Source: Candidatus Krumholzibacteriia bacterium
GTDB taxonomy: Bacteria > Krumholzibacteriota > Krumholzibacteriia > Krumholzibacteriales > Krumholzibacteriaceae
NCBI GenBank assembly: GCA_963836185.1
Contig: CAWIIQ010000001.1
Span: 1,920,001-1,984,000, forward strand
Reading direction: 5' to 3'
Length of the DNA stretch: 64,000 bases
Shown here: in pieces, positions 23,401 through 36,285 of the stretch
Numbering within the stretch: the first letter of the stretch is position 1
Layout of the letters: every line of letters starts with the position of its first letter
Notes under the pieces: generated by a model
The model's input: the letters and a program-made list of their open reading frames with translations, nothing else
What the model was told of the DNA's origin: nothing
Databases searched by the model: none
Position numbers and translations under genes: made by a program

Positions 23401-23420
23401 TCCTCCCTCCTCTTCCGGGC

Positions 23421-24656
23421 CTACCCCCTCATCTCGGCGATCTTCCTTACGGCCTGCTCCTGCATATCCCTGGCCGCCTCGGCCGGGTCGAGCTTCCCTC
23501 CCATCACGGACTGGTAGTAGGGGCGCATCGCGTCCCAGATAGCCCGCATCTCTGGCACCACCGGCATCGGCTGCCCGTGCAGCGCCTGATCCATCGAACC
23601 CTTCAGGACAGGATCAGCGAGAAGGACCTCATCAACGGCGAGGCTGGAGAGCGCCGGAAGGATCTTCAGTTCGGAGGTGATCTCCCTCTGGACCGCTTCT
23701 CCTGTGAGATAGACGAGCAGTTCCTTTACAGCGGGGAGTTTCTCGTCCTTGACGTTGACGCTAATAGAGTAGCCCTTGCTCGATACCATAGGCGCGGGGT
23801 ACTTTCCCGTCTCCGAAATAATCGGTATCGCCATGACGCCTATGTCCATCCCCGCCTCGATGTATGCCTTGAGCGACCAGGGGCCGTTGATGATGAATGC
23901 CGCCTGGCCCTTCTTGAACATCGTGTCGCTGAGCTCATAGTTGCATTCCTTCGGGAGTATCTTGTGCCTGTTGCGAAGGTCGGCCATAAAGGCGAGCGCC
24001 CTCGCCATCGCCGGCGTGTCGAGCGTCGGAGCGTAATTCTTGTCCATCACCTTTCCATTGAATCCGCCCAGGAAAGGAACGAGCCAGAAGGGCTCGACCG
24101 AGTTGAAAACAACGCCGTATATCTCCGGCATCCCGTCTCCGTTCTCGTCTACAGTGAGGCCCTTACACATCTTTATCCACTCATCGCTGTCTCTCGGCTC
24201 CGACTTGACCATCGCTTTGTTGTATATCAGCATGAGGTGGTTGCCGATCTGGTCGGGCACCGCGTAGTTGTGTCCCTCCAGGACACCGAGCGATGACTTC
24301 TCATACGCGCCAAAGAAAGCCGAGTCGAATATCTTTTCGAGTGGCATGATGAGCTGCATCACCGAGTACGGCCCGATCTTGTCGCTCGGCCCGTACACGA
24401 GGTCGGGGCCGCCGCCCGCGAGGGTGGCCGTCTGGAACTGGCTGTGAAGAAGGTCGGTCTCGAAATGTACCGTCGAGACTGTAACACCGGGATGGCTCGC
24501 CATGTAGGCATCGAGCTGCCTGTTGAGGACGACCTGCTCGACAGGGTCCTTCTGTTCCCATATGACGATCTCGTTGGTTCCGTCTCCCCCTCCCCCACAT
24601 CCGGAGAGGACGAGAAACAGGGATGCAAGCGCGAGCGCTGAGATTTTCCTGAACAT
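23421..24656 (-). CDS. malE: Maltose/maltodextrin-binding lipoprotein, MalE-like
   Basis: Lipobox LSGC, GGGPDL, LIYNK, INGPW, PMPVVPEMRAIW; GGAGG RBS. Confidence 0.85.
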   Translation of the reverse strand: MFRKISALALASLFLVLSGCGGGGDGTNEIVIWEQKDPVEQVVLNRQLDAYMASHPGVTVSTVHFETDLLHSQFQTATLAGGGPDLVYGPSDKIGPYSVMQLIMPLEKIFDSAFFGAYEKSSLGVLEGHNYAVPDQIGNHLMLIYNKAMVKSEPRDSDEWIKMCKGLTVDENGDGMPEIYGVVFNSVEPFWLVPFLGGFNGKVMDKNYAPTLDTPAMARALAFMADLRNRHKILPKECNYELSDTMFKKGQAAFIINGPWSLKAYIEAGMDIGVMAIPIISETGKYPAPMVSSKGYSISVNVKDEKLPAVKELLVYLTGEAVQREITSELKILPALSSLAVDEVLLADPVLKGSMDQALHGQPMPVVPEMRAIWDAMRPYYQSVMGGKLDPAEAARDMQEQAVRKIAEMRG

Positions 24657-24667
24657 GAACGACCTCC

Positions 24668-25841
24668 TCAGTCCTTGAGTACTACATATTGCGAGAGATC
24701 GAGCTGCAGGTTCCTCTCGATCTCGCCAGCGGTTTCAGGTCCGGTCTCCGTGAAAGACAAAGGAGAAGACGCGGTAAGTTGCGCCAGTCAGTTTTGCGGA
24801 GCTCGATCACCTTATCGAAGTTGGCCGCGAAGCCTTCGTAATCTATTTCCTCTACATCTTCGACGGGAACATCCTCGGGGATGAAGGCAACATACATCGA
24901 GTAGACCCTGTCTTCCTTCCCGGCGAATATCGTATTCCAGTCAGGTATCTTTCTCTCGAGAAAATACTCATGAGTGTTGATGCCCCATGCGTACCAGCCG
25001 AAATCGGTCCCGCCGAATCCGGCGAACCTCATCGGGTTGGCCTCTATCGGAACGATATCGCAGCCGTCCACCCTCAACTCGATATGAAGGGGAAAATTCT
25101 TCAGGTCGGCCTGCTTCCCGATTCGGGCAAGCGGGCCGGTGAACATCCGTATCCCGTACTCGACGATAGCTTTCGAGGTGACATATGTCGTATCGCTCAC
25201 ATCTGTCCCCGATGAGAAGAGATGGTGAAGGACATTGAGTATAACCGGGCGGCCTGTCTCATCGTAATATACGTCTACCGCGAACTCCTCGCCCTTTATC
25301 CCTTCCTCGATGATGAAGGTGCCCGGATCGAATACCTGTCCGGGATACATCCCCCCGAAACTCTCGAGATCCTCCTCGATCGACTTGCAGGGCGGCGGGC
25401 CAGTCTTCGTCAGATTCTATCTTTCGGACGGCCATGCTGAAGAATCCAACCGCCGGCTTTACGACAAACGGCTTGGGGAGCTCTGACGGGTCGAGATGCC
25501 TGAGCGCCTCGACGTCGATACCGGCGTAGAAGAACTCCGGATGGTCCTCCTCGATCATAGCGCGGAAATCGATCTTGTTCTTCAGCCGGTCGATCCTGTA
25601 GGGAAGTCCGGAAGGCCCGAGGTTTTCGGCGATCCATCCGATCGCGTCCTCCGAGCTGGTATAGATCAGAGGATACTTCTCGCGCGTTCGCCCTGGCGGC
25701 GAACTCCTCCCCGTCGAGGAGTGCGAGGTCGTATTCCTCGGCGACCTTTTCGGAGACGGCGTTTCGCAGCACCGGCGTCCTGAGGCGCTGGAGTGTTTCG
25801 GCGAGAAGATCGGATACGTACGGCCTGTCGAGTATTATCAT
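24668..25841 (-). CDS. ATP-grasp domain protein (at least three frameshifts)
   Basis: KPFVVKPAVGFFS, FIIEEGIKGEEFAVD, HIELRVD...PIEANPMRFAG; reconstructed C-terminus ...LDLSQYVVLKD* ends just before the malE RBS. Confidence 0.8.
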
Positions 25842-26575
25842 TACTTCTTATGCTCCCTGGGGAGCCTTCCGACAGGCATCACGTAGAGAGGCACTTCCTC
25901 TTCGGTCATCCCGATCAGTTTCTTGAGGGCATCGTCGGAGAAGGCGCCGATCGCGCAGGTGCCGAGCCCGAGGGAGCCGCACTGCAGATAGACGTTCTGC
26001 GCCGAGTGGCCGAGGTCCATACAGACATATCTGTCATGCCCGCGCTCCCCGTACTTCTCCGTGCATCTCTCGTAGACGGCGGACCAGACGATCGATACTG
26101 GAGCTTCGCCGGCGAACGGCTGGCTAAGGCAGGCCGCCATCAGGTCGCTTCGGATATCGCCATCGGCGAGCCTGTGGATCAGATGACCCTCAGGTACGTA
26201 CCAGTATATCCCCGGCAGGAGCCCTTTTACGTTTCCCGCTACCAGATATATCTCGAGCGGGTAACGCGCGCCGGCTGAGGGTGCGGTCTTGAACCCGCCG
26301 CGTATGAAATCGGGAAGCCCTTCCTTCGTGTAGGTGATCCCGTAGGCGGACCAGAGAAGTTGTGAGACTTCCTCCAGCGTAACGGGCTCATCGGTATATT
26401 TCCTTACCGACCTGCGCTCATGGAGGACCTTTTCTATCGAGAAATCACTGCTCAAGAGAGGCTTGGGCAGTTCGACTGTCGCAATAGCCTGGTGCTCGAG
26501 AGTGTACTTGCCGCTCCATGCCGTCGTGGGCATCAGGATACAGGCGGCGAGAACGAGGATAGTCAGATATCTCAT
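25841..26575 (-). CDS. SagB/ThcOx-family nitroreductase-fold dehydrogenase with N-terminal signal peptide
   Basis: RRSVRKY, KTAPSAGARYPLEIY, KYGERG, DLGHSAQNVYLQ, GTCAIGAF. Confidence 0.92.
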   Translation of the reverse strand: MRYLTILVLAACILMPTTAWSGKYTLEHQAIATVELPKPLLSSDFSIEKVLHERRSVRKYTDEPVTLEEVSQLLWSAYGITYTKEGLPDFIRGGFKTAPSAGARYPLEIYLVAGNVKGLLPGIYWYVPEGHLIHRLADGDIRSDLMAACLSQPFAGEAPVSIVWSAVYERCTEKYGERGHDRYVCMDLGHSAQNVYLQCGSLGLGTCAIGAFSDDALKKLIGMTEEEVPLYVMPVGRLPREHKK

Positions 26576-26615
26576 CGGGGTCTCCTTTCACATGCAGAAA
26601 AACATGGAAAGGAGA

Positions 26616-26828
26616 CTAACCGTTATCGGGGATATATTCAAGTATATCCCCCGGCTGACAGTCCAGGGCCCTGCAGACAGCTTCGAGTGTCGAGAACCGG
26701 ACGGCCCTGGCCCGTCCTGTCTTGAGGACGGAGAGATTCGCGATCGTCACTCCCACCTCGGATGACAGTTCCGTAAGGGACATCTTCCGTCTGACGAGCA
26801 TCATGTCGAGATTAACGTTGATTGCCAT
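26616..26828 (-). CDS. Cro/C1-type HTH regulator (YozG-like)
   Basis: NLSVLKTGRARAVRFSTLEAVCRALDCQPGDILEY. Confidence 0.95.
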   Translation of the reverse strand: MAINVNLDMMLVRRKMSLTELSSEVGVTIANLSVLKTGRARAVRFSTLEAVCRALDCQPGDILEYIPDNG

Positions 26829-26839
26829 GACACCCTCCC

Positions 26840-27487
26840 TCAGACGGTAAGTTCGCTGTCTTCACACAGGCTCACGCCGTACTGGAATACGTGCCCGATT
26901 ACTACGATAACAAGACCGGCGAATATATAGAATACCCGGAAGTCGGGCTCGATATAGATCTTCGCCCCTTCGATCCCTATCTTCGGCAGCCACATCCACG
27001 CGTAGATGTACTCGAGAATGCCCCAGAAAGGACCGGCCGCCATCACGAGCCAGCCCATCGCCCTTATCCTCGCGGCGTTCACCCGTGTAAAGGGTGTACC
27101 GCTCTTTATAGACTTGATGATCTTCCTGAGGATCATCACTATCCCGAGAAAAAGCATCGAGAGGAGCAGCGGCATTATGACGAAGATCCTCTGCAACCCC
27201 TTCTCGCCGTTCTCCATGACGAGCCGGCTGTACCCGGTGATCTTCGAGCTGGTGATCGAAAGGTCCTGTCCCTGCAGCCAGCCTCCTCCACCGGCGATGT
27301 AGCATACTTCAACCGGGGCACGCGTATACTTCACATGGAATGGAGTGAAGTTCACAGCGATCACGAGAACGACCGAGAGAAGCATCGCGAGAACGGCGAG
27401 CCAGAAGAGGATCTCGACTACTACCACCGATACCTTCGTCGCCGCGGAGGGCTTGAATCCCTGTACCGTCATGACGGCTCCTTTCAT
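26840..27487 (-). CDS. DUF2975 membrane protein
   Basis: 4 TM, PFTRVNAARIR, C-terminal FQYGVSLCEDSELTV; canonical partner of YozG-type HTH genes. Confidence 0.9.
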   Translation of the reverse strand: MKGAVMTVQGFKPSAATKVSVVVVEILFWLAVLAMLLSVVLVIAVNFTPFHVKYTRAPVEVCYIAGGGGWLQGQDLSITSSKITGYSRLVMENGEKGLQRIFVIMPLLLSMLFLGIVMILRKIIKSIKSGTPFTRVNAARIRAMGWLVMAAGPFWGILEYIYAWMWLPKIGIEGAKIYIEPDFRVFYIFAGLVIVVIGHVFQYGVSLCEDSELTV

Positions 27488-27527
27488 TTAGAATCCTGTT
27501 CCGTATACGGGTAGAATGAACATAATG

Positions 27528-27588
27528 TTGCCGTTTTTCAAGCAATTTTTATTGTTTTACGATAATTTATTACCGTATTACGAGGTAA
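27528..27588. promoter_or_regulatory. Three imperfect palindromes at 21-bp spacing, putative operator array
   Basis: TTGCCGTTTTTCAAGCAA (27528), TTATTGTTTTACGATAA (27549), TTACCGTATTACGAGGTAA (27570), upstream of the DUF2975-HTH pair. Confidence 0.55.
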
Positions 27589-27638
27589 GAGCGAAGTCCG
27601 CTTGCATCAGATCACGAATGCAGTTAACATCTTCAGCC

Positions 27639-28043
27639 ATGCGGAGAACGTTCAGAAGAGATATAGGATCGCTCGATGCGCTATTCGCGTTCGCGGAAGA
27701 GTTCGAGACCTGCAACGGCCTCGAGGATCCCGAATCTTACTTCCTCGACCTGACGCTCGAAGAGCTCTTCACAAACCTCGTGCGTCACGCCAACGGAAGC
27801 GAGAATATCGATGTCGAGATAGAACTCGATGACGGCCTTATAACGATCCGCCTTACCGACCGCGAGACCGGACCGTTCGATGGAAACTCGCTCGGCGAAG
27901 TCGACACTGAAGCTCCGCTGATGGAACGCGAGCCGGGCGGGCTCGGCATCCATCTCGTAAAAAAGATGGCGGACAGCCTGGAATACGACTACGATGACGG
28001 CACCCTGGTCATCACGGTAAAGAAGCGCCTGGAGGAAAGATGA
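27639..28043 (+). CDS. Anti-sigma/Ser kinase, RsbW-like (HATPase_c_2)
   Basis: LTLEELFTNLVRHA, LTDRETGPFD, REPGGLGIHLVKKMAD. Confidence 0.92.
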   Translation: MRRTFRRDIGSLDALFAFAEEFETCNGLEDPESYFLDLTLEELFTNLVRHANGSENIDVEIELDDGLITIRLTDRETGPFDGNSLGEVDTEAPLMEREPGGLGIHLVKKMADSLEYDYDDGTLVITVKKRLEER

Positions 28044-28327
28044 CGTTCGACATATCGGTAGCGGGAGATGGAACGATAAGACTCGCCGGAAGGCTCGACT
28101 CGAACCAGGTCGATACGACCAGGACCGTCCTCGAAAAGGTCGAAACGACGGTAAAGGTAGATTTCGCGGAGCTGCGATATATCTCCAGCGCCGGCCTCGG
28201 CCTCCTTCTCGGCACCCAGAAACGCCTCATCGACAAAGGTCACAAGCTTGAGATCATCAACATGACTTCTCACATCCGCGATATCTTCACCATCGCCGGA
28301 TTCGACTTTATATTTGACATAAAGTAA
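28040..28327 (+). CDS. STAS anti-anti-sigma factor (RsbV-like)
   Basis: LAGRLDS, DFAELRYISSAGLG with the phosphorylatable Ser, IFTIAGF; ATGA overlap. Confidence 0.95.
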   Translation: MTFDISVAGDGTIRLAGRLDSNQVDTTRTVLEKVETTVKVDFAELRYISSAGLGLLLGTQKRLIDKGHKLEIINMTSHIRDIFTIAGFDFIFDIK

Positions 28328-28422
28328 AAGTTATTTTACTCTGATTCACAAGCTCTCTAACACAAGGGATTTACAACAACACCTGCAGCACGAGCGTGAC
28401 GGCTGTGGCACGGTCCGGTATT

Positions 28423-28485
28423 CCGGTATCGTCCTCCGTCACCGGCCATCGAAGTGCGCCGGACGGAGGACGTTTTCCATACCGG
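28423..28485 (+). terminator. Long stem-loop between the STAS and ECF genes, possible terminator
   Basis: CGTCCTCCGTC (28430-28440) pairs with GACGGAGGACG (28462-28472), followed by TTTT; CCGGTAT/ATACCGG can extend the stem. Confidence 0.5.
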
Positions 28486-28488
28486 CCG

Positions 28489-28517
28489 CCAACTTTTTCA
28501 TGGTTGGTCTGTATTTA
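28489..28517 (+). promoter_or_regulatory. Putative autoregulatory ECF promoter, copy 1
   Basis: CCAACTTT-N12-CTGTATTTA; the last A is the first base of the ECF start codon. Identical arms and spacing at 29805. Confidence 0.75.
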
Positions 28518-29047
28518 TGTCGACAACGGATTCATCGCTGGTCAACGAGACGCTGAATGGAGACAGGGAAGCGTTCGGAAGGCTGGTGGAGAAGTACGAG
28601 CGGCGGATCTTCAACCTCGCGTTAAGGATCTGCGGCGACTACGAGGAAGCCATGGACGTAACACAGACAGTATTTGTAAAGGCCTTCGACAGGCTGGAGA
28701 CCTTCGATCCTTCGAGGAAGTTCTTCAGCTGGCTCTACAGGATGGGCGTCAACGAATCCCTCAATCAGGTCAAAAGACAGAGCAGGATAGTGCACGTCGA
28801 ATTCGACCCTCCCTCCCGCACTCCGGGACCGGAGCAGCAGCTGATCCGTGAGGAGTCGAACGGGCTCGTGCAGACGGCGCTCAAGAGACTCAGCGAGGAC
28901 CAGAGGGTGGTCATCATCCTCAGGCACTTCGTCGATCTCTCGTACAGCCAGATAGCCGAAGTGCTGGGGATCCATGAGAAGACTGTGAAGTCCAGGCTTT
29001 ACTCAGCCAGGCAGCGGATGAAGGAATTACTTACAGGGGCGGTGTAG
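28517..29047 (+). CDS. ECF RNA polymerase sigma factor (SigW/RpoE-like)
   Basis: DSSLV...GDREAFGRLVEKY, DVTQTVFVKAF, FFSWLYRM, LSYSQIAEVLGIHEKTVKSRLYSAR. Confidence 0.95.
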   Translation: MSTTDSSLVNETLNGDREAFGRLVEKYERRIFNLALRICGDYEEAMDVTQTVFVKAFDRLETFDPSRKFFSWLYRMGVNESLNQVKRQSRIVHVEFDPPSRTPGPEQQLIREESNGLVQTALKRLSEDQRVVIILRHFVDLSYSQIAEVLGIHEKTVKSRLYSARQRMKELLTGAV

Positions 29048-29050
29048 GTC

Positions 29051-29788
29051 ATGACCATAGATGAAAGATACATAAGGATGATGAACGAGGAGATCGACGG
29101 TGTCATCTCCGATGAGGACGCTGAGAGACTCGCTTCATATGTCAGCTCCGATCCGGAGGCCGGGAGATACTACAAGGAGCTTCGGGCGACGGTCGAGGCT
29201 ATCGACGGCACGAGAGATGTCGAGCCACCCTCCGAACTCAGGGAACGGATCTTCAGTTCGGTATACGAACGCTCCCTGGAAGAGGCAGTGGCCCGCCCCC
29301 CCGAAAGAAACGTTTTCTGGCGGTCGTTCGTGCCGGTCTTCGCTGCCGGCGTAGCGGCAGGATTCATACTCTTCGCCGCGATACGGCAGCTGCCGGACCG
29401 GGCACCGGATGAACCTGGATACGGAGCGACTATCGGAGCGGCTTCCGGAGAAGATGAGACCACAGGAAGATTCGACGCTTTCGGGGTGAAGGGCAGCATA
29501 ACCCCCGTATTCGAGAGCGGTTCTGCGACTATCACATTAGACCTGGCTTCAGAGGCGGATGCCAGCATCCTCCTCGAGTTCGAGGATGGAACATCCTTCG
29601 AGTCGATCAGGTCGAGCGAGGGAACTGCCTACCAGATGGAGGTCGATGAAAAGAGCCTCCTGCTCGTACATAACGGCATCGCGGAATATATCGTCAGACT
29701 CAGATCGGCGGGATCCACGTCTTTCGTGCTGCGGATCTTCACCGATGGCAAGACTGTGGCGGCGACGAAATATTCCGCCGGAGAATAA
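29051..29788 (+). CDS. Transmembrane anti-sigma factor
   Basis: Cytoplasmic ASD-like N-terminus (EIDGVISDED...EPPSELRERI), one TM (FVPVFAAGVAAGFILFAAI), periplasmic beta-rich domain. Confidence 0.85.
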   Translation: MTIDERYIRMMNEEIDGVISDEDAERLASYVSSDPEAGRYYKELRATVEAIDGTRDVEPPSELRERIFSSVYERSLEEAVARPPERNVFWRSFVPVFAAGVAAGFILFAAIRQLPDRAPDEPGYGATIGAASGEDETTGRFDAFGVKGSITPVFESGSATITLDLASEADASILLEFEDGTSFESIRSSEGTAYQMEVDEKSLLLVHNGIAEYIVRLRSAGSTSFVLRIFTDGKTVAATKYSAGE

Positions 29789-29804
29789 AAACAGGCTGAT
29801 CTGA

Positions 29805-29833
29805 CCAACTTTCGAAAGACCCGCCTGTATTTA
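29805..29833 (+). promoter_or_regulatory. Putative ECF promoter, copy 2, upstream of the repeat-protein gene
   Basis: CCAACTTT-N12-CTGTATTTA ending 58 nt upstream of ATG 29891, which has an AAGGAGG RBS. Confidence 0.75.
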
Positions 29834-29890
29834 GGGTGAACAGTAAATCAGTCAGCGGCAGAAACCCATTTACCAGAAGGAGGGCACCAG

Positions 29891-31858
29891 ATGACCAGGA
29901 ACAAGGTTCTACTGGTGGTTGTCCTGATCGCGATCGCAGTGGTCGCCTACTTCGCCTTCTTCCATCCTCCCACAGGCCGTGAAGGCGCCGAAGGGACGAT
30001 AGGAGTGGTGGAAAAGCACCGTGACCAGCAGATGAGCGACGAGGACGTAGTACTGAATTTCGAGGGGGATTACGAGTCGGAATACACTATCGACAATATC
30101 ATCTCCCCTGAGGAAATGGCTGCTCTGTTCGAGCGCACTAATATGCAGGAAAAGGCCAATCTCATGCAGAGGGTCTCGATCCAGCAGAAGGCGGAGCTGG
30201 CCGATCTCGTCCCGACGCAGGAACGCGTCTCTATGGTCGAGCGCGCCACTCCGATGGAACGTGTCTCCATGTTCCAGCGTTTCTCGATCCAGGATCGAAC
30301 CAGCATCATGAAGAGACTGTCGATGACCATGGAAGCGTTCAACAAGCTGCCCATGCAGGAAAAATCAGCTCTCATGATGGAAAAGTTCTCTGTCCAGGAG
30401 AAATCCTCCCTGATGCAGACGGCTACCATCCAGGAGAAGGCCGCCATCATGGAGAGGCTCTCCATCCAGAAAAGGGCCGATATCATGATGCGCGCCTCGA
30501 TCCAGCAGAAGGCCGCGATATTCAACCGCACCTCGATCCAGGAGCGCCTCGACATCATGGAGCGCTGCTCGATCCAGCAGAAGGCATCGATATTCAATCG
30601 TGCCTCGAGTGCTGAGCAGGCCTCGATGTTCGAGAAAGCTACATTCATGGAGAAGGCGGCGATATTCAATCGCACCAACGTCCAGGAGCGCATGAGATCA
30701 TGAACAGGCTTTCCGTTCAGGACCGGACCTCCCTGATGAAGAGATCGTCGATCACGATGGAAGCCTTCGACAAGCTCCCGGCGCAGGAGAAGTCCGCCGT
30801 CATGATGGAGAAGTTCTCGATCCAGGAGAAGGCCCAGTTGATGGACAGGTTCTCGATCCAGGAGAAGGCCAACATAATGCAGAGAGCCTCTGTCACGGAA
30901 CGCGCGAATATCATGCAGCGCGCCTCGATCACGGAGAGAGCCTCTATCATGCAGAGGACCAGCATCATGGGCAGGACCTCTTTCACCTTCGAGCGGGCCT
31001 CGGTCCATGGAACGCGCCGATATAATGCAGCGCGCATCGGTCACGGAAAAAGCGGCGATCTTCGATCATGCCACGGTCCAGGAACGTATGGAGCTCATGA
31101 GCAGGCTTTCCGTTCAGGATCGGACCTCGCTGATGAAGAAATCATCGATAACGATGGAAGCCTTCGACAAGCTCCCGATGCAGGAAAAATTCTCGGTCAT
31201 GAACAAGTTCTCGGTACAGGAGAAGGCCGCCATGATGGAGAAGTTCTCGGTACAGGAAAAATCCAGCATCATGGAGCGCACCTCGATCCAGATGAGAACC
31301 TCGCTGATGGAACGCGCGTCGATCCAGCAGAAAGCCTCGATCATGGAGAGGGTCAATATCCAGGAGCGGGCGTTTGTCTTCCAGAGGGCCTCGGTCATGG
31401 AGAAGGCGAACGTGTTCGCCAGGGCCACTGCCCAGGAGCAGGTCGACATGTTCGCTCGCTGCTGCATGCAGGAAAAGGCCGCGATATTCAACCGCACCTC
31501 GGTACAGGAGCGCACCGAACTTATGCAGCGCCTCTCTGTCCAGGACCGCACTTCGGTACTCAACCGGGCCGCGATCACGATGGAAGCCTTTGAAAAGCTC
31601 CCGATGCAGGAGAAGGCCGCCGTCATGATGGAGAAGTTCTCGGTACAGGAGAAGGCCCAGCTGATGGACAGGTTCTCGGTACAGGAGAGAGTCAGCATAA
31701 TGGGGCGTGCATCAGTCATGGAGAAGGCCTCGATATTCAACAGGGCCTCGATCACCGAGAAAGCCAGCATCATGGGACGCTTCTCGGTGCAGGAAAGAGC
31801 CTCTGTATTCAACAGGGCCTCGGTCATGGAGAGGTCGTCGATAAGCAGGGAAATCTAG
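29891..31858 (+). CDS. Membrane-anchored or exported Met-rich tandem-repeat protein (~655 aa; compensating frameshifts near 30694 and 31005)
   Basis: N-terminal TM, short unique segment (GAEGTIGVVEKHRDQQMSDEDVVL), then ~45 units of consensus R(A/F)S(I/V)QEKAxI(M/F)x. The three track ORFs join into one if a G is added at ATG[G]AGATC and a C removed at GTC[C]ATG. Confidence 0.85.
30115..31850 (+). repeat. Coding tandem repeat, 36-bp unit, nested in four ~400-430-bp higher-order blocks
   Basis: Recurring TC(G/T)(A/G)TCCAGGAGAAGGCC-type words; block marker ATGGAAGC (MEAF) at 30329, 30757, 31154 and 31580. Confidence 0.9.
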
Positions 31859-31904
31859 GGGTCCCTCGCACTTTTGATATGAAGCGGAAGAGGGGATGAG
31901 TGGT

Positions 31905-31945
31905 AGGAAGGAGCAGCCCGGCACCGACCGGGCTGCCTCCTTCCT
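31905..31945 (+). terminator. Strong stem-loop between the repeat gene and the surface peptidase gene
   Basis: AGGAAGGA-GCAGCCCGG / CCGGGCTGC-C-TCCTTCCT; no adjacent U-tract. Confidence 0.6.
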
Positions 31946-31970
31946 GCCGCGTTTCAGTCAAAGGAAGGAT

Positions 31971-34900
31971 ATGAGAGGTTTCAAATCGACCGCCGGCCTG
32001 CTTTCCCGCTCGATTCCCGTCCTCATCGCCGCCGCGGCGGTCTTTCTCGTTCCGCAGCGGGTATCGGGCCAGGACGAATATGTACAGTCAAAGCCTTACC
32101 AGCTCAAATACAGGGCCTACGAGACAGAGGACCTCAGGATCTTCTACTTTTATCGCGAGCAGGAGTATGTCATAGAGCACGTGGCTCGCTGCTTCGAGAA
32201 CGCGTTCCGGTATCACCAGAAGTTCTTCGATTACACGCCGAGTGGCGAGGTCACGGTCTATTTCAATGACGACGATGACTACGGATACGCCGGCACCACT
32301 GTCATCCCGAACAACTGGATCACCCTCGGCATCGAGCCGTTCGAGTATGTATACGACACATGCCCGACTAACGAGCGGATGAACTGGGTGATGAACCACG
32401 AGCTCGTCCACGTCACCGCCTCCGACCAGGCTACCGGGTGGGACTCGAGGTTCAGGAAGCTCTTCTTCGGAAAGGTCCACCCTGTCGCGGAGGATCCCGT
32501 CTCTATATTCTACGCATACCTCACTACGCCCCGACTCTACTCTCCGCGCTGGTACCATGAGGGTATCGCAGTATTCATGGAGACATGGATGGCAGGCGGT
32601 ATCGGACGATCGCTGACTGGTTACGACGAGATGACCTTCAGGGCGATGGTCCGCGACAGCATGCAGTTCCATACCGTCGTCGGACTCGAATCGGAAGGGA
32701 CGGCGAAGGATTTCCAGATCGGCCAGGTGTCGTATCTCTACGGCACGAGGTTCTTCAGTTATCTCTCACTTATGCACGGTCCGGAATCCGTCATCGAATG
32801 GGTGCGCCGCAACGAGGGAAGCGGCGCCTATTTTTCGACACAGTTCCGGAATGTCTACGGCGCCTCGATCTACGAGAAATGGGACGAATGGATAGAATTC
32901 GAGAAGGAGTGGCAGACGACCAACCTCGACGATTCTATCCGGCAGTATCCCGTCACTCCTTCCAGGCAACTCTGTGAGCGGCCTCTCGGCTCGGTATCGA
33001 GGGAGTTCTTCGATCCCGGAGAAACGAAAACTGTACACAGCGGTAAACTATCCCGGCGAGTTCTCCCACATCGCCGAGATAGATATCGATTCGGGAAAGA
33101 TGCGCAAGATCTGCGAGATAGAGACCCCGGCCCTCTACTACGTCACCGGACTCGCCCACGACCCGGAGAGCGGCACTCTCTTCTTCACCACCGATAACAG
33201 CAGGGGCTTCCGCGACGTTAACTCGGTCGATATAGAGACAGGGAAGACGAAGTCGCTCTGCAAGGATATCCGAACCGGCGACCTCGTCTACTGCCGGGCC
33301 GATTCGACGCTCTGGGGCATCATGCACAATGAGGGATTCTCCAGCATCGTGATGTTCGTTCCTCCCATACAATGACGGATACGAGCTCATCAAGCTCAGG
33401 TACGGGATCGACCTGTTCGATATCGATATCTCGCCGGACGGCAAGTATCTGACCGGCACGATGACAGACATAAGCGGCCGGCAGAGGCTCATCAGGATGG
33501 AGACGGAAAGACTGATGTTCGGGGACGGTACCTGGGAGCTGATCCACGAGTTCGCGGACAATAACGCGGCCAATTTCGTTCACTCGCCCGACGGGCGGTA
33601 CCTTTACGGGACATCGTACGTGACCGGCGTATCGAATATATTCAGGTTCGATCTCGAGCAGTGGAAGCTCGAGGCGATGAGCAACTTCGAGATCGGGGGC
33701 TTCCGCCCCCTTCCCGTATCGGACGATTCGCTGATAACATTCACTTACACCGGGAGAAGGCTTCGAGCCTGTGATGATACCGGTAAAACCGATCGAGGAC
33801 GTTGCAGTCGATAAGGTATCTCGGCCAGGCGGTCATACTGGAGCACCCCGTCCTCGACGGACTGGAAGCTCTCGTCGCCGAAGCAGATCGAGATCGACTC
33901 AATGATGACATACGAGGGCGAGTACAGCCCGACAAAGAACCTGCGGGTGACCTCCCTCTACCCGATCGTCGAGGGGTACAAGGAATACGGTACGATCGGG
34001 CTGCGGTTCAACATGATGGACCCGGTCGGGATAAACGCTCTCGACATGGCCGCCTCATACACACCGAACACGAACCTGCCGGAGAACGAACGGGCCCACT
34101 TCAGGTTCAAGTTCTCGAGGGGCACGATGGGGGGCGACAGGGTATTACAACCGCGCCGACTTCTACGACCTCTTCGGCCCGACGAAGGTGAGCAGGAAGG
34201 GACATTCGCTCGCCCTCGATTACGACTACGGATTCGTCGTCGACAGGCCGAAGAGGCTCGGCCTGAACGTCCGCGCCGCCGCCTACGGCAACCTCGAGTA
34301 TCTCCCCCACTACCAGAACGTGCAGGCGACGATAAAGGATTTCTACACTCTCGAGGGGTCCCTCCACTTCAGGCACACAAGGGGAACGATCGGCGGGATA
34401 CAGGCGGAGAAGGGGATGCTCTTCTCCCTGAACAGTTATAACTCCCTGGTCAACGGCGACCTCTACCCCCTCTTCTACGGGCACCCTGGATTACGGTGTC
34501 CTGCTTCCATGGGACCATTCGTCGATATGGCTCAGGACATCGGGCGGCTTCTCCTTTGGAGACAGGGATGAATCGAACTCGTACTTCTTCTTCGGGGGAT
34601 TCGGGAACAACTGGGTCGACCACAAGAGGGTCAACAGGTACAGGGAGTTTTACGCCTTCCCCGGCGTCGAGCTCAACGAGATCGGCGGCACGAACTTCCT
34701 CAAGGGGATGGTCGAATGGACGCTGCCGCCCCTGAGGTTCTCCTCCTTCGGAAAGCCGTCGCTCTATGCCAACTGGGCGAGCCTCGCCTTCTTCGGATCG
34801 GTCATCGCGACCAATGTCGATGCCGGACTACGAAGGGGTCGAGGTGGCAAATGCGGGCACACAGCTGAACCTGAAGATCGTATTCTTCTCGTCGCTGCAG

Positions 34901-34991
34901 ACGACCTTCTCGGCCGGTTACGCTTTCGCTTTCGAGGAGGGCCGTAGCGCCGAGAGAAGAGTTGATGCTGTCCTTGAAGATATTGAGATAA
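31971..34991 (+). CDS. Large exported protein (~1000 aa): zincin-like HExxH domain, TolB-like beta-propeller and putative C-terminal beta-barrel (many frameshifts)
   Basis: Signal peptide; NHELVHV...PRWYHEGIAV gluzincin-like motif; DISPDGKYL and HSPDGRYLY propeller blades; C-terminal strands FFFGGFGNNWVD, VEWTLPPLRF, ending ...ELMLSLKILR*. Confidence 0.75.
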
Positions 34992-35010
34992 ACAGAAGGG
35001 GTATTGTGAG

Positions 35011-36111
35011 TTGAACTACCTACTGGCCATCCTCCCCGTCCTCGTCTTCCTCCTCGTCCTCAAGGCGATGGATTCGTTCAAGCTCGTCAGTTTCCGGCAT
35101 GTCGCGGCAAGCCTCGCGGCCGGATTCGCCGCGGCTGTCGCCGCCTTCTTCATCACGAAGCAGCTCATGCCGGCACTCGGTCTCTCCATATACTCCCCGA
35201 TATACTCGAGATATATCGCTCCCGATGCTCGAGGAGGCGCTTAAAGGGGCCTGGATCATCTGGCTGCTCTGACGAGGCGCAGGACAGGATTCATGGTCGA
35301 CACGGCGATACACGGCTTCGCGATAGGTGCCGGGTTCGCAATCGTCGAGAACGTATACTATCTCAATAATATGACAGGGTACGGTATAGCCTTCGGCATA
35401 GTCCGCGGATTCGGACCGGCCCTGATGCACGGCACCTCGACAGCGATCTTCGGGGTCCTCGCGAAGACAGCCTCCGAGCTGCGCGGCTCGGTATCCACCG
35501 CGACGGTGCTTCCCCGCCTTCCTGATAGCCGTTCTGATACATTCGCTGTTCAATCACTTCTTCATCTCCCCCCTGGTCTCGGCCCTGGCCCTGCTCATCG
35601 GCGTCCCGCTGGTGATGACGCTTGTCTTCCAGCCAGAGCGAACGCTCACTGCGCAAGTGGCTCGGGATAGGCTTCGATTCCGACCAGCAGATGCTGGAGA
35701 TGATAACCTCCGGGCGATATCGCGAGCACACCGGTCGGCGAATACCTCATCTCGCTCAAGCGCACCTTCACCGGGGAGACGGTCGCCGACATGCTCTGCT
35801 GCCTCAGGCTGCATCTCGAGCTCTCTATCAGGGCCAAGGGTATCCTGCTGATGAGGGAGAACGGATTCGAGCCTCCTCCCGATCCGGATGTCGAGGAGAT
35901 GTTCAGGGAACTGAAATACCTCGAGGGCCGCATAGGGGTGACGGGCAAACTCGCGCTGCACCCGCTGCTGCGCTGGAGCAGCCGCGATCTCTGGCAGCTT
36001 CACATGCTGTCGGGATTCATGCCGGGGAAGCGACCTCTGATCCCCGAAAAGAGAAGGGCGACCGACTGGCGGCCGCCCTTTGATTCCAAATACTGGCTTA
36101 GCAGGCTCTAG
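35011..36111 (+). CDS. PrsW-family intramembrane glutamic protease with soluble C-terminal extension (several frameshifts)
   Basis: Reconstructed motifs APMLEEALKG, GFAIGAGFAIVENVYY, ALMHGT, LIHSLFNHF. True stop may be near 36040, before the hairpin. Confidence 0.85.
36047..36081. terminator. Hairpin between the convergent PrsW-family and histone genes
   Basis: AAGGGCG(A)CCG / CGG(C)CGCCCTT stem with TTT on the + side and TCTCTTTTC on the - side. Confidence 0.6.
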
Positions 36112-36285
36112 AAATCGAACGGGTAGATGGTCTTGCGCTTGTTGCCCTTCGCCCTCTCGGCGGCGGCCTTTGACCATCTCGGCGATCTGAGCGTTAAGAG
36201 CCTCAGCCGCGTCTCCACTCATCCTGAGACCATGCTTCTTGGCCAGATCCTTGATCCTCGAGGCGTAAACGAAAGTCTCTGCCAT
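36108..36285 (-). CDS. Bacterial histone-fold protein, 58 aa (one extra base near 36170)
   Basis: Removing one base at GTC-AAA-G gives MAETFVYASRIKDLAKKHGLRMSGDAAEALNAQIAEMVKAAAERAKGNKRKTIYPFDF*; RKTxxxxD histone clamp, R(M)S loop, AAGGAGG RBS, downstream hairpin. Confidence 0.85.

Follow-up and report, generated by a model that had tools for sequence, protein, structure and literature searches.

A stretch of 64,000 nucleotides (the window) from a Candidatus Krumholzibacteriia bacterium (GenBank assembly GCA_963836185.1, contig CAWIIQ010000001.1, positions 1,920,001 to 1,984,000 of the forward strand) contains a group of seven genes for a kinase and a STAS protein, a sigma factor of the extracytoplasmic function (ECF) type with its anti-sigma factor, a membrane-anchored repeat protein, a predicted outer-membrane protein and an intramembrane protease of the PrsW family (Table 1). 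A preliminary description made from the sequence had listed seven co-oriented genes, and all seven are present on the plus strand where it had placed them. The end of the PrsW gene had to be moved from 36111 to about 36040, as the longer tail is due to an extra base at 36036 that is absent from an independent short-read contig. The start of the STAS gene overlaps the stop of the kinase gene.

Table 1. The cassette and its promoters (window positions)
Feature	Position	Strand	Basis or remark
RsbW/SpoIIAB-like serine kinase (GHKL fold), 134 aa	27639..28043	+	PF13581 (HATPase_c_2) E 3e-18
STAS-only protein, 95 aa, short subfamily	28040..28327	+	PF13466 E 2e-12
ECF-type promoter 1, CCAACTTT-N13-TGTATTT	28489..28516	+	sequence; motif matrix
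ECF sigma factor, 176 aa, regions 2 and 4 only	28517..29047	+	PF04542, PF08281
Single-pass anti-sigma factor, 245 aa	29051..29788	+	NF052375 E 1e-9; 39 stand-alone homologues aligned
ECF-type promoter 2, motif as promoter 1, before repeat, barrel and PrsW genes	29805..29832	+	sequence
Membrane-anchored repeat protein, ~650 aa in relatives	29891..31858	+	three frames here
Zincin-propeller-barrel protein (predicted outer-membrane), ~1,000 aa in relatives	31896 (or 31971)..34991	+	ten pieces here
PrsW-family intramembrane protease, ~338 aa in relatives	35011..~36040	+	PF13367; several pieces here

The seven genes are a single cassette that is conserved across phyla. An alignment scan with one genome per species confirmed the PrsW subfamily in at least 584 of 598 candidate stretches, and the best 80 of these were kept as loci, a sample that leans towards the query (L and G numbers denote loci and genomes). 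According to the titles and tree labels of these 80, the cassette loci come from about eleven groups at phylum level: Krumholzibacteriota, Eiseniibacteriota, Pseudomonadota, Bacteroidota, Ignavibacteriota, Balneolota, KSB1, Calditrichota, Marinimicrobia, Gemmatimonadota and Acidobacteriota. The gene for the zincin-propeller-barrel protein (the barrel gene) was present in 72 of the 74 loci in which at least 600 nt precede PrsW. All seven genes were found in 36 of the 42 loci with at least 8.5 kb upstream of PrsW (the long loci), and singly the barrel gene in 41, the repeat and STAS genes in 40 each, and the kinase, sigma and anti-sigma genes in 39 each; in a 41st long locus with a repeat gene the N-terminus of the latter is masked. 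Six loci (L048, L049, L082, L084, L117, L119) keep the set in a changed order, and the genes downstream of the cassette are unrelated between loci. Recurrent co-occurrence across phyla, which the preliminary description had proposed as a check, is thus what we find.

The family is large. The candidates scored comprise 5,796 PrsW clusters at 90% identity, and the leader of the repeat protein gave 1,733 clusters at 50% identity. This leader is carried by 61 of the 181 genomes of the host phylum, of which 59 also have a cassette-type PrsW (counted across two tables). The closest named PrsW homologue among the matches listed is from Candidatus Krumholzibacteriota and is 86% identical to a same-genus query. 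The named hosts encountered are all metagenome- or single-cell-derived genomes, which may explain why the cassette was missed.

The kinase matches the RsbW model NF003144 with E 1e-6, under the cut-off of the model, and the phospho-acceptor serine of the STAS protein, S50 (YISS*AGLG), is invariant (56/56). A SpoIIE/PP2C phosphatase had been reported as absent from the window. In agreement with this, no PP2C gene adjoins the cluster, the window as a whole not having been scanned for PP2C, and the 11 SpoIIE matches of the genome all lie outside the window. A PP2C gene is adjacent or fused in 32 of the 80 loci and present in 27 of the 42 long loci; GAF- and FHA-PP2C types occur. In the proteobacterial copies L097, L110, L121 and L128, open reading frames match both the kinase and the PP2C profiles and are probably kinase-phosphatase fusions. 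The sigma factor scores above the cut-off of TIGR02937 and under those of the SigW and RpoE equivalogs.

The anti-sigma factor belongs to no Pfam family, and its NF052375 match is under the cut-off. It consists of a cysteine-free N-terminal helical domain, one membrane helix, a juxtamembrane A/G-T-I motif (29426-29434) and a beta-rich outer domain. The repeat protein has an N-terminal membrane helix, a G-T-I motif (29993-30001), a K/RYRxxQIxxxDV segment and variable 12-residue helical repeats. A G-T-I/L/M motif following the membrane helix is thus common to both proteins. In the repeat proteins G is present in 63/64 and T in 54/64, the motif lying at a median of 10 residues past the helix; in the stand-alone anti-sigma factors the figures are 33/39, 30/39 and 15 residues. 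Conservation of the repeat protein is confined to the membrane helix, the motif and the short segment after it. The repeats, which are almost without W, C, H and Y, are not conserved: the period is 9 in 31 and 12 in 18 of 63 proteins, and the outer part varies from 131 to 799 residues. Pfam and NCBIfam matches of the repeats to MgtE_N, LpxD, STI1, FliH and an LED repeat vary between proteins and were rejected as compositional artefacts, and the ESM Atlas gave no usable match for the first 110 residues.

In 19 loci the N-terminal domain of the anti-sigma factor is fused in frame to the repeat protein, which replaces the helix and outer domain of the anti-sigma factor. The preliminary description had the repeat protein exported, bound or cut by the barrel protein. 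It is more than such a target, as it carries the juxtamembrane motif of the anti-sigma factor and is joined to the anti-sigma domain in these 19 loci. At least four separate groups of fusions were read off a quick PrsW tree as drawn; the group test made on the tree compared fused with STAS-only rows and is silent on how often the fusion arose. Seven of the 19 fusions carry the promoter motif of the cassette within the linker, so that one gene could yield both a long inhibitor and a shorter form induced by sigma. In two genomes, G183 and G060 (L151:4181-4507, L152:3819-4382), short orphan membrane proteins that have the leader and G-T motif of the repeat protein, and few or no repeats, also lie behind this promoter motif; the orphan in L151 adjoins a PP2C gene.

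The barrel protein is composed of a signal peptide, a gluzincin/peptidase-MA-like domain, a TolB-like beta-propeller and a predicted 16-strand Omp85-like barrel. HELVH is encoded at 32397-32411 and HEGIA at 32556-32570, and H168, E169, H172 and E222 are invariant in 13/13 homologues, which is the gluzincin pattern. Although there was no direct Pfam match to PF13485, the top ESM Atlas clusters were of PF13485 type at 0.95, with PF13485 in 10% and 35% of their members, which we take as a lead; the zincin domain is thus predicted to be gluzincin/peptidase-MA-like. The structural model (mean predicted local distance difference test score, pLDDT, 63) shows the zincin domain, the propeller and 16 long C-terminal strands. 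Foldseek matched the propeller to TolB (E 2e-9 to 1e-7), the listed matches covering the propeller alone. The propeller also has PD40 matches, and a PDB sequence search with the barrel alignment returned weak propeller matches only. The assignment of the barrel rests on the strand count and a weak match to Omp85_2 (PF19143, E 0.002, under the cut-off), and this prediction would place the protein in the outer membrane, not specifically at the surface as had been described for the zincin. POTRA domains were found neither in the Pfam scans nor in the model. The usual Omp85 loop-6 motif, (V/I)RG(F/Y), is absent; the loop reads FxGGFGNN...RYR...FPG. Relatives also encode distant zincin-domain paralogues (22-27% identity; L022-L029) in open frames that reach about 1,000 aa; these probably represent a wider family of such barrel proteins outside the cassette.

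The motifs of PrsW proteases are EExxK, FxxxEN, H and HxxxN. In the cassette PrsW the corresponding residues E72 E73 K76, E110 N111, H137 and H174 N178 are invariant in 56/56 intact homologues, and the EE codons of the window are flanked by assembly breaks. Seven membrane helices are seen in the model (pLDDT 90.5) together with a helical C-terminal domain of 130 residues, which is conserved across the 56 homologues and probably cytoplasmic. At E<=0.001 Foldseek matched nothing in the PDB; there was a weak match to APH-1, the gamma-secretase subunit, which is a distant relative of PrsW (PMC3482391). That PrsW is the protease of the anti-sigma factor, as previously suggested, is likely: the anti-sigma factor keeps its PrsW neighbour in minimal units of sigma factor, anti-sigma factor and PrsW that have neither the repeat nor the barrel gene (L094 and a second unit in G048). 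This second unit (L157:1051-3421) reads STAS, ECF sigma, short anti-sigma and a PrsW without the C-terminal domain; it lies about 19 kb from a kinase-STAS-repeat-barrel-PrsW unit (L044), of which it contains the cognate sigma.

The other partner that stays with PrsW is the STAS protein. Among 20 further loci, hand-picked and mostly from one family, 12 have STAS directly before PrsW with the other cassette genes absent and the key residues of both proteins kept. These loci form one clade in the PrsW tree and thus represent one event. The barrel gene was not found in 5/5 of their genomes (it was detected in the control G048), and single-protein queries found no cognate sigma in 2/2 and no cognate kinase in 3/3. 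Hence the circuit is not self-contained, as had been thought, but modular: STAS-PrsW occurs alone, PP2C is usually included, and the repeat and barrel genes can be lost. The two-gene modules belong to a family of the host phylum (L131-L135, L137-L139, L142-L144, L146); several follow an Rrf2 regulator and lie a few kb from an unrelated ECF sigma with a zinc-finger anti-sigma factor, which could be a candidate PrsW substrate. Two other arrangements were seen. L136:6616-10317 contains PrsW, a different STAS, a GAF-PP2C and three promoter-motif matches, with no sigma, repeat or barrel gene nearby. L100:4365-6741 (Marinimicrobia) has two tandem repeat genes and a divergent PP2C-STAS-kinase operon; one query found no cognate sigma in this genome.

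Partial correlations of evolutionary distances were calculated over 45 complete loci; they are post hoc and are affected by the kinship of the loci and the joint inheritance of neighbouring genes. For the controls they were 0.66 for STAS-RsbW and 0.24 for sigma-anti-sigma. STAS gave 0.24 with the C-terminal domain of PrsW and -0.13 with its protease domain, and RsbW gave 0.05 with sigma. For the segment of the repeat protein after the helix, co-divergence with the barrel protein reached 0.54 over the whole protein, with a partial correlation of 0.25 for the propeller. Gene retention and co-divergence together weakly suggest that the target of STAS is the C-terminal domain of PrsW.

The consensus of the promoter motif, CCAACTTT-N13-TGTAWTT, was obtained by a Gibbs search upstream of the repeat genes. 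The matrix finds 39 of the 46 stand-alone repeat genes, which is circular as it was built from them (shuffle mean 0.12), and independently 54 of 60 ECF genes (shuffle mean 0.02), three of the six misses being unrelated second ECFs. The 94 strong matches in 1.4 Mb of locus DNA include 88 that precede a sigma or repeat gene and four more that precede a cluster gene. The matches at 28489 and 29805 are the only ones scoring at least 13 on either strand of the 64-kb window, which bears out the common ECF-type promoter that had been described before the sigma and repeat genes. Another strong match in the same genome (23.9; L155:2301, G000:C1:344800) lies about 110 nt before a gene that may belong to the regulon and encodes a secreted beta-helix protein (more than 1,197 aa).

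Promoter 1 stands before the sigma gene but most likely does not serve its expression. Its -10 box ends on the base that directly precedes the sigma ATG. In the repeat genes the commonest pyrimidine-purine step is 4-5 nt past the box (T in 26/46, the next base a purine in 37/46) and is likely to be the start site; transcription from promoter 1 is accordingly predicted to start inside the sigma gene, at about 28522-28523. Of 55 loci, 33 have the sigma start codon directly against the box (distance 0) and 41 have it at a distance of -2 to +3; in eight it is 4-7 nt past the box (compatible with a leaderless transcript), in three it is further down, and in three more none was found. In most lineages, the window included, the transcript would therefore start past the sigma start codon and yield the anti-sigma factor and the downstream proteins only, so that promoter 1 probably supplies inhibitors and not sigma. 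Three Balneolaceae/Balneolales loci have the motif directly before the fused anti-sigma gene, which fits an inhibitor-only transcript.

From the genes, motifs, fusions, promoter and co-occurrence described above we infer the following signal, binding and cleavage steps. The RsbW kinase and PP2C would set the phosphorylation of STAS, as is known of these families, and the signal would be cytoplasmic where the partner is a GAF-PP2C. STAS would then act on the C-terminal domain of PrsW, and not via RsbW on sigma. PrsW would make the site-1 cut about 10-15 residues outside the membrane helix of the anti-sigma factor, and the RseP of the host would complete the cleavage and free sigma. In both substrates the cut would be at or near the common G-T-I/L/M motif. 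Free sigma would fire the two promoters, of which promoter 1, starting just inside the sigma gene, would provide more anti-sigma factor and not more sigma, and promoter 2 the repeat, barrel and PrsW proteins. The repeat protein, in effect an anti-sigma factor without the sigma-binding domain, would compete for PrsW and damp the response. Possibly, and this is the weakest step, the propeller catches the shed outer part via the conserved segment after the motif, and the zincin degrades or processes it at the outer membrane. To this interpretation as a whole, in which a STAS-gated PrsW cuts the anti-sigma factor and the repeat protein and the induced repeat protein serves as a decoy, its shed part being handled by the barrel protein, we give about an even chance of being correct.

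Several observations weigh against it. The repeat segment does not co-diverge with PrsW (0.05 and -0.03), and a pure decoy would not need 130-800 residues of repeats. The single-contig genome G062 (86% complete) keeps the repeat gene, and no barrel gene was found in it. The second unit of G048 has STAS beside a PrsW that has no C-terminal domain. In Gemmatimonadota and a few further loci STAS is of a different, longer type and is encoded on the opposite strand, so that its pairing with PrsW is not strict. The distance correlations count here too, with the limits named above, and column covariation in the paired alignments (56-75 rows) did not separate the control pairs from the others. Positive autoregulation exists in some lineages, since the start codon stands 4-28 nt past the box in 11 of 55 loci. 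With a small or aliphatic residue at -3 and Gly at -1, the G-T motif fits a site of signal peptidase I as well.

An alternative is that the repeat protein is the product of a dedicated export and maturation pathway. PrsW would release it from the inner membrane, the propeller would bind the new N-terminus and the zincin would cut peptides of 9-12 residues; the barrel would export these, or else the intact solenoid, to serve as a signal or surface material specific to the lineage. Sigma and the partner switch would govern the production of the repeat protein and may also sense it. In favour, the genes for the repeat, barrel and PrsW proteins stand under one promoter in a kept order, and the repeats vary freely in unit and length after a leader-like segment that is constant, the one that co-diverges with the barrel protein. 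L100 and L110 keep the repeat, barrel and PrsW genes and the switch, and one query found no cognate sigma in their genomes. A weak point in favour, as contigs cannot rank genes, is that the RNA contigs from a close strain fall mostly on the 5' part of the repeat gene. However, no transporter or modifying enzyme is conserved in the loci, and the repeat units are degenerate with no fixed cleavage spacers, shrinking in betaproteobacteria to low-complexity runs such as AAGN. Moreover, orphan homologues occur without repeats, in the 19 fusion loci the repeats are the outer domain of the anti-sigma factor itself, and the barrel has neither POTRA domains nor the usual loop-6 motif. We regard the export pathway as a tentative and rather unlikely explanation.

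RsbW could also be a second anti-sigma factor which binds the ECF sigma and is released by unphosphorylated STAS, PrsW being a separate input. The control of sigma is the canonical role of the kinase-STAS-PP2C triad, established for Bacillus SigB and SigF, and RsbW-STAS lies directly upstream of the sigma gene in most loci, with the frequent PP2C completing the triad. Yet STAS remains with PrsW where the cognate kinase and sigma were not found, and kinase and STAS stand beside the PrsW or repeat gene, away from sigma, in L044, L048, L049, L117, L119 and G062. The near-zero correlation of RsbW with sigma is against it too, as is the fact that the known canonical targets of partner switches are group 3 sigma factors, not ECFs. 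Such a two-input control of sigma seems improbable to us.

A third possibility concerns the cut itself, which might be made at the G-T motif by signal peptidase I or by self-cleavage through an N-O acyl shift, with PrsW acting on another substrate or later. The residues at -3 are A, V, T or L and Gly is at -1. RsiP, and likewise RsiV, is reportedly cut by signal peptidase. A precedent for the second route is the self-cleavage of FecR and FoxR at a G-T motif (10.1101/2021.02.04.429786). Ala takes the place of Thr in 10/64 repeat proteins and 4/39 anti-sigma factors, which removes the nucleophile and argues against cleavage of the FecR type; self-cleavage as the main route was rejected for this reason. 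Signal peptidase is not known to need conservation past its cleavage site, whereas here conservation continues past the motif. The two substrates also have no common folded domain around the motif, and PrsW stays with the anti-sigma factor in the minimal units. A cut by another agent than PrsW is accordingly quite doubtful in our view.

That the group is a decaying or chance cluster with real frameshifts, as its roughly 17 frame breaks in three genes would allow, is extremely improbable, because the breaks are read through by the sister haplotype, relatives and two short-read contigs, unrelated neighbours are broken as well and the cluster is conserved across phyla. The frameshifts in the window are assembly errors. 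The barrel gene has nine breaks, each of them +1, relative to contig C5 of the same assembly (G000), which holds a second version of the locus (91.7% identical) with this gene open up to the contig end. In its repeat gene C5 itself has a single break, elsewhere than those of the window. At the zincin part, 20 related genomes match at E<=1e-94 with no internal stop (19 of them were read). The repeat gene has two frameshifts, at about 30697 and 31007, and PrsW about six. The repeat protein is intact (652-654 aa) in L033, L036, L037 and L050, and an RNA contig restores its frame at 30695-30699, so that with the base at 36036 two independent contigs correct two breaks. Four of nine orthologues outside the cluster are likewise split over frames in this assembly. 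The short-read contigs are from two public runs that contain only 11% and 6% of the sampled words; thus no start sites, expression levels or habitat can be derived from them.

C5 (L031) corresponds to window 23419-34985 at about 90-92% identity and is probably a co-assembled sister strain. A block from the DUF2975 gene through the anti-sigma gene (26937-29623) is identical in both, while the flanks differ by several percent or more; it may be a collapsed consensus or the result of recent recombination. The DUF2975 membrane protein and a Cro/C1 regulator (HTH_26) are encoded at 26616-27487 on the minus strand and transcribed away from the cassette, which this pair does not adjoin in most relatives. 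On the other side a basic protein of 58 aa (36111-36285, minus strand) is convergent with PrsW, frameshifted here and intact at L035:4797-4973. It is similar to bacterial or archaeal single histone folds; Pfam gave no match to the 39-aa piece scanned.

The cassette is apparently undescribed, a new arrangement of known kinds of parts. Our literature search, which mostly did not cover subscription journals, found no description of the gene set. In the main text of the ECF reclassification (PMC7826278) PrsW, STAS, SpoIIE and Omp85 do not occur, and the four passages found in the searchable part of its supplement concern other groups. Its supplement also lists CsfT-RsiT-PrsW of C. difficile, and PrsW is the site-1 protease of RsiW (PMC3482391). 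Like SigW/RsiW/PrsW/RasP, the cassette has an ECF sigma with a co-transcribed single-pass anti-sigma factor, a PrsW with intact catalytic motifs and, elsewhere in the genome, an M50 site-2 protease (PF02163, E 7e-68). Unlike the Bacillus system, it occurs in diderm hosts, PrsW is encoded in the operon and has the 130-aa C-terminal domain, and the anti-sigma factor lacks the zinc-binding (ZAS) cysteine motif. PrsW (NF033739, 29.4 bits, cut-off 225) and sigma (NF007223, 113.6 bits, cut-off 209) score under the cut-offs for orthology. The sigma-induced second substrate-like protein, the outer-membrane zincin-barrel and the partner switch have no counterpart there.

The GHKL kinase, the STAS with a conserved serine and the frequent PP2C resemble RsbU/P-RsbV-RsbW-SigB and SpoIIE-SpoIIAA-SpoIIAB-SigF as well as the non-canonical switches SypE-SypA, HsbR-HsbA (PA3346-PA3347), BtrUVW and RbaVW. 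In contrast to a canonical partner switch, the cluster contains no group 3 sigma; its sole sigma is an ECF with its own membrane anti-sigma factor, and the partner retained with STAS is a membrane protease. STAS proteins can act as output to other targets, FlgM and unknown ones being named (PMC8256260), and the word protease does not occur in the available text of that paper on partner-switch targets. As in E. coli rpoE-rseABC, where the internal promoter rseA P3 makes only the anti-sigma operon (PMC8595263), the sigma-dependent transcript would yield the anti-sigma operon and not sigma. However, rseA P3 lies within the rpoE coding region beside a positive autoregulatory promoter, whereas in the cassette a single motif straddles the sigma start codon; the site-1 protease is DegS in E. 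coli and, as proposed, PrsW here.

The barrel protein is similar to the WD40-Omp85 class, in which a propeller precedes the barrel and which is non-POTRA, as are PlpD and Metallo-Omp85 (PMC4104836). It has a predicted 16-strand barrel behind a TolB-like propeller, but differs in its N-terminal gluzincin (the 'Metallo' class has PF00149), the changed loop-6 motif and the linkage to a signalling cassette. It also differs from BamA, TamA and TpsB, having neither POTRA nor the loop-6 motif. With FecA-FecR-FecI and FoxA-FoxR-FoxI the cassette shares an outer-membrane protein, a membrane anti-sigma factor with a G-T motif and an ECF sigma in one locus. Unlike these, it has no TonB-dependent receptor or FecR domain (Pfam), the Thr is not invariant and a site-1 protease is encoded in the locus. 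PrsW fused to polymorphic toxins has been proposed as a release protease for the exported protein (PMC3482391); there the toxin domain is variable, whereas the C-terminal domain here is conserved and no toxin or immunity gene was seen. In sum, the cassette would work in the manner of SigW-RsiW-PrsW, and it belongs neither to the canonical partner switches nor to the FecR systems or PrsW-toxins.

A more far-reaching interpretation, which we consider on balance unlikely, is that the cassette represents a new class of trans-envelope system in diderms, in which a phospho-switch in the cytoplasm gates an intramembrane protease that sheds a lineage-specific repeat protein and frees an ECF sigma, and an outer-membrane zincin-propeller-Omp85 machine cuts the shed protein into numerous short peptides and releases them. 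If true, this would be peptide signalling like quorum or kin sensing over about eleven mostly uncultured phyla, with the promoter that hides the start codon of its own sigma as a brake.

Under the interpretation of a STAS-gated PrsW with a decoy substrate, the cassette bears on PrsW itself, the activation and substrate choice of which are, to our knowledge, open even in Bacillus. It offers a candidate regulator, STAS acting on a defined C-terminal domain, and a candidate recognition motif common to two unrelated ectodomains, together with natural fusion and deletion variants, and its parts are small enough to be rebuilt in E. coli. A promoter that overlaps the start codon of its own sigma is a compact feedback design, which would be useful for synthetic ECF switches. 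Beyond this, the cassette offers a candidate target for 'orphan' partner switches and a role for the unstudied class of zincin-propeller-Omp85 proteins.

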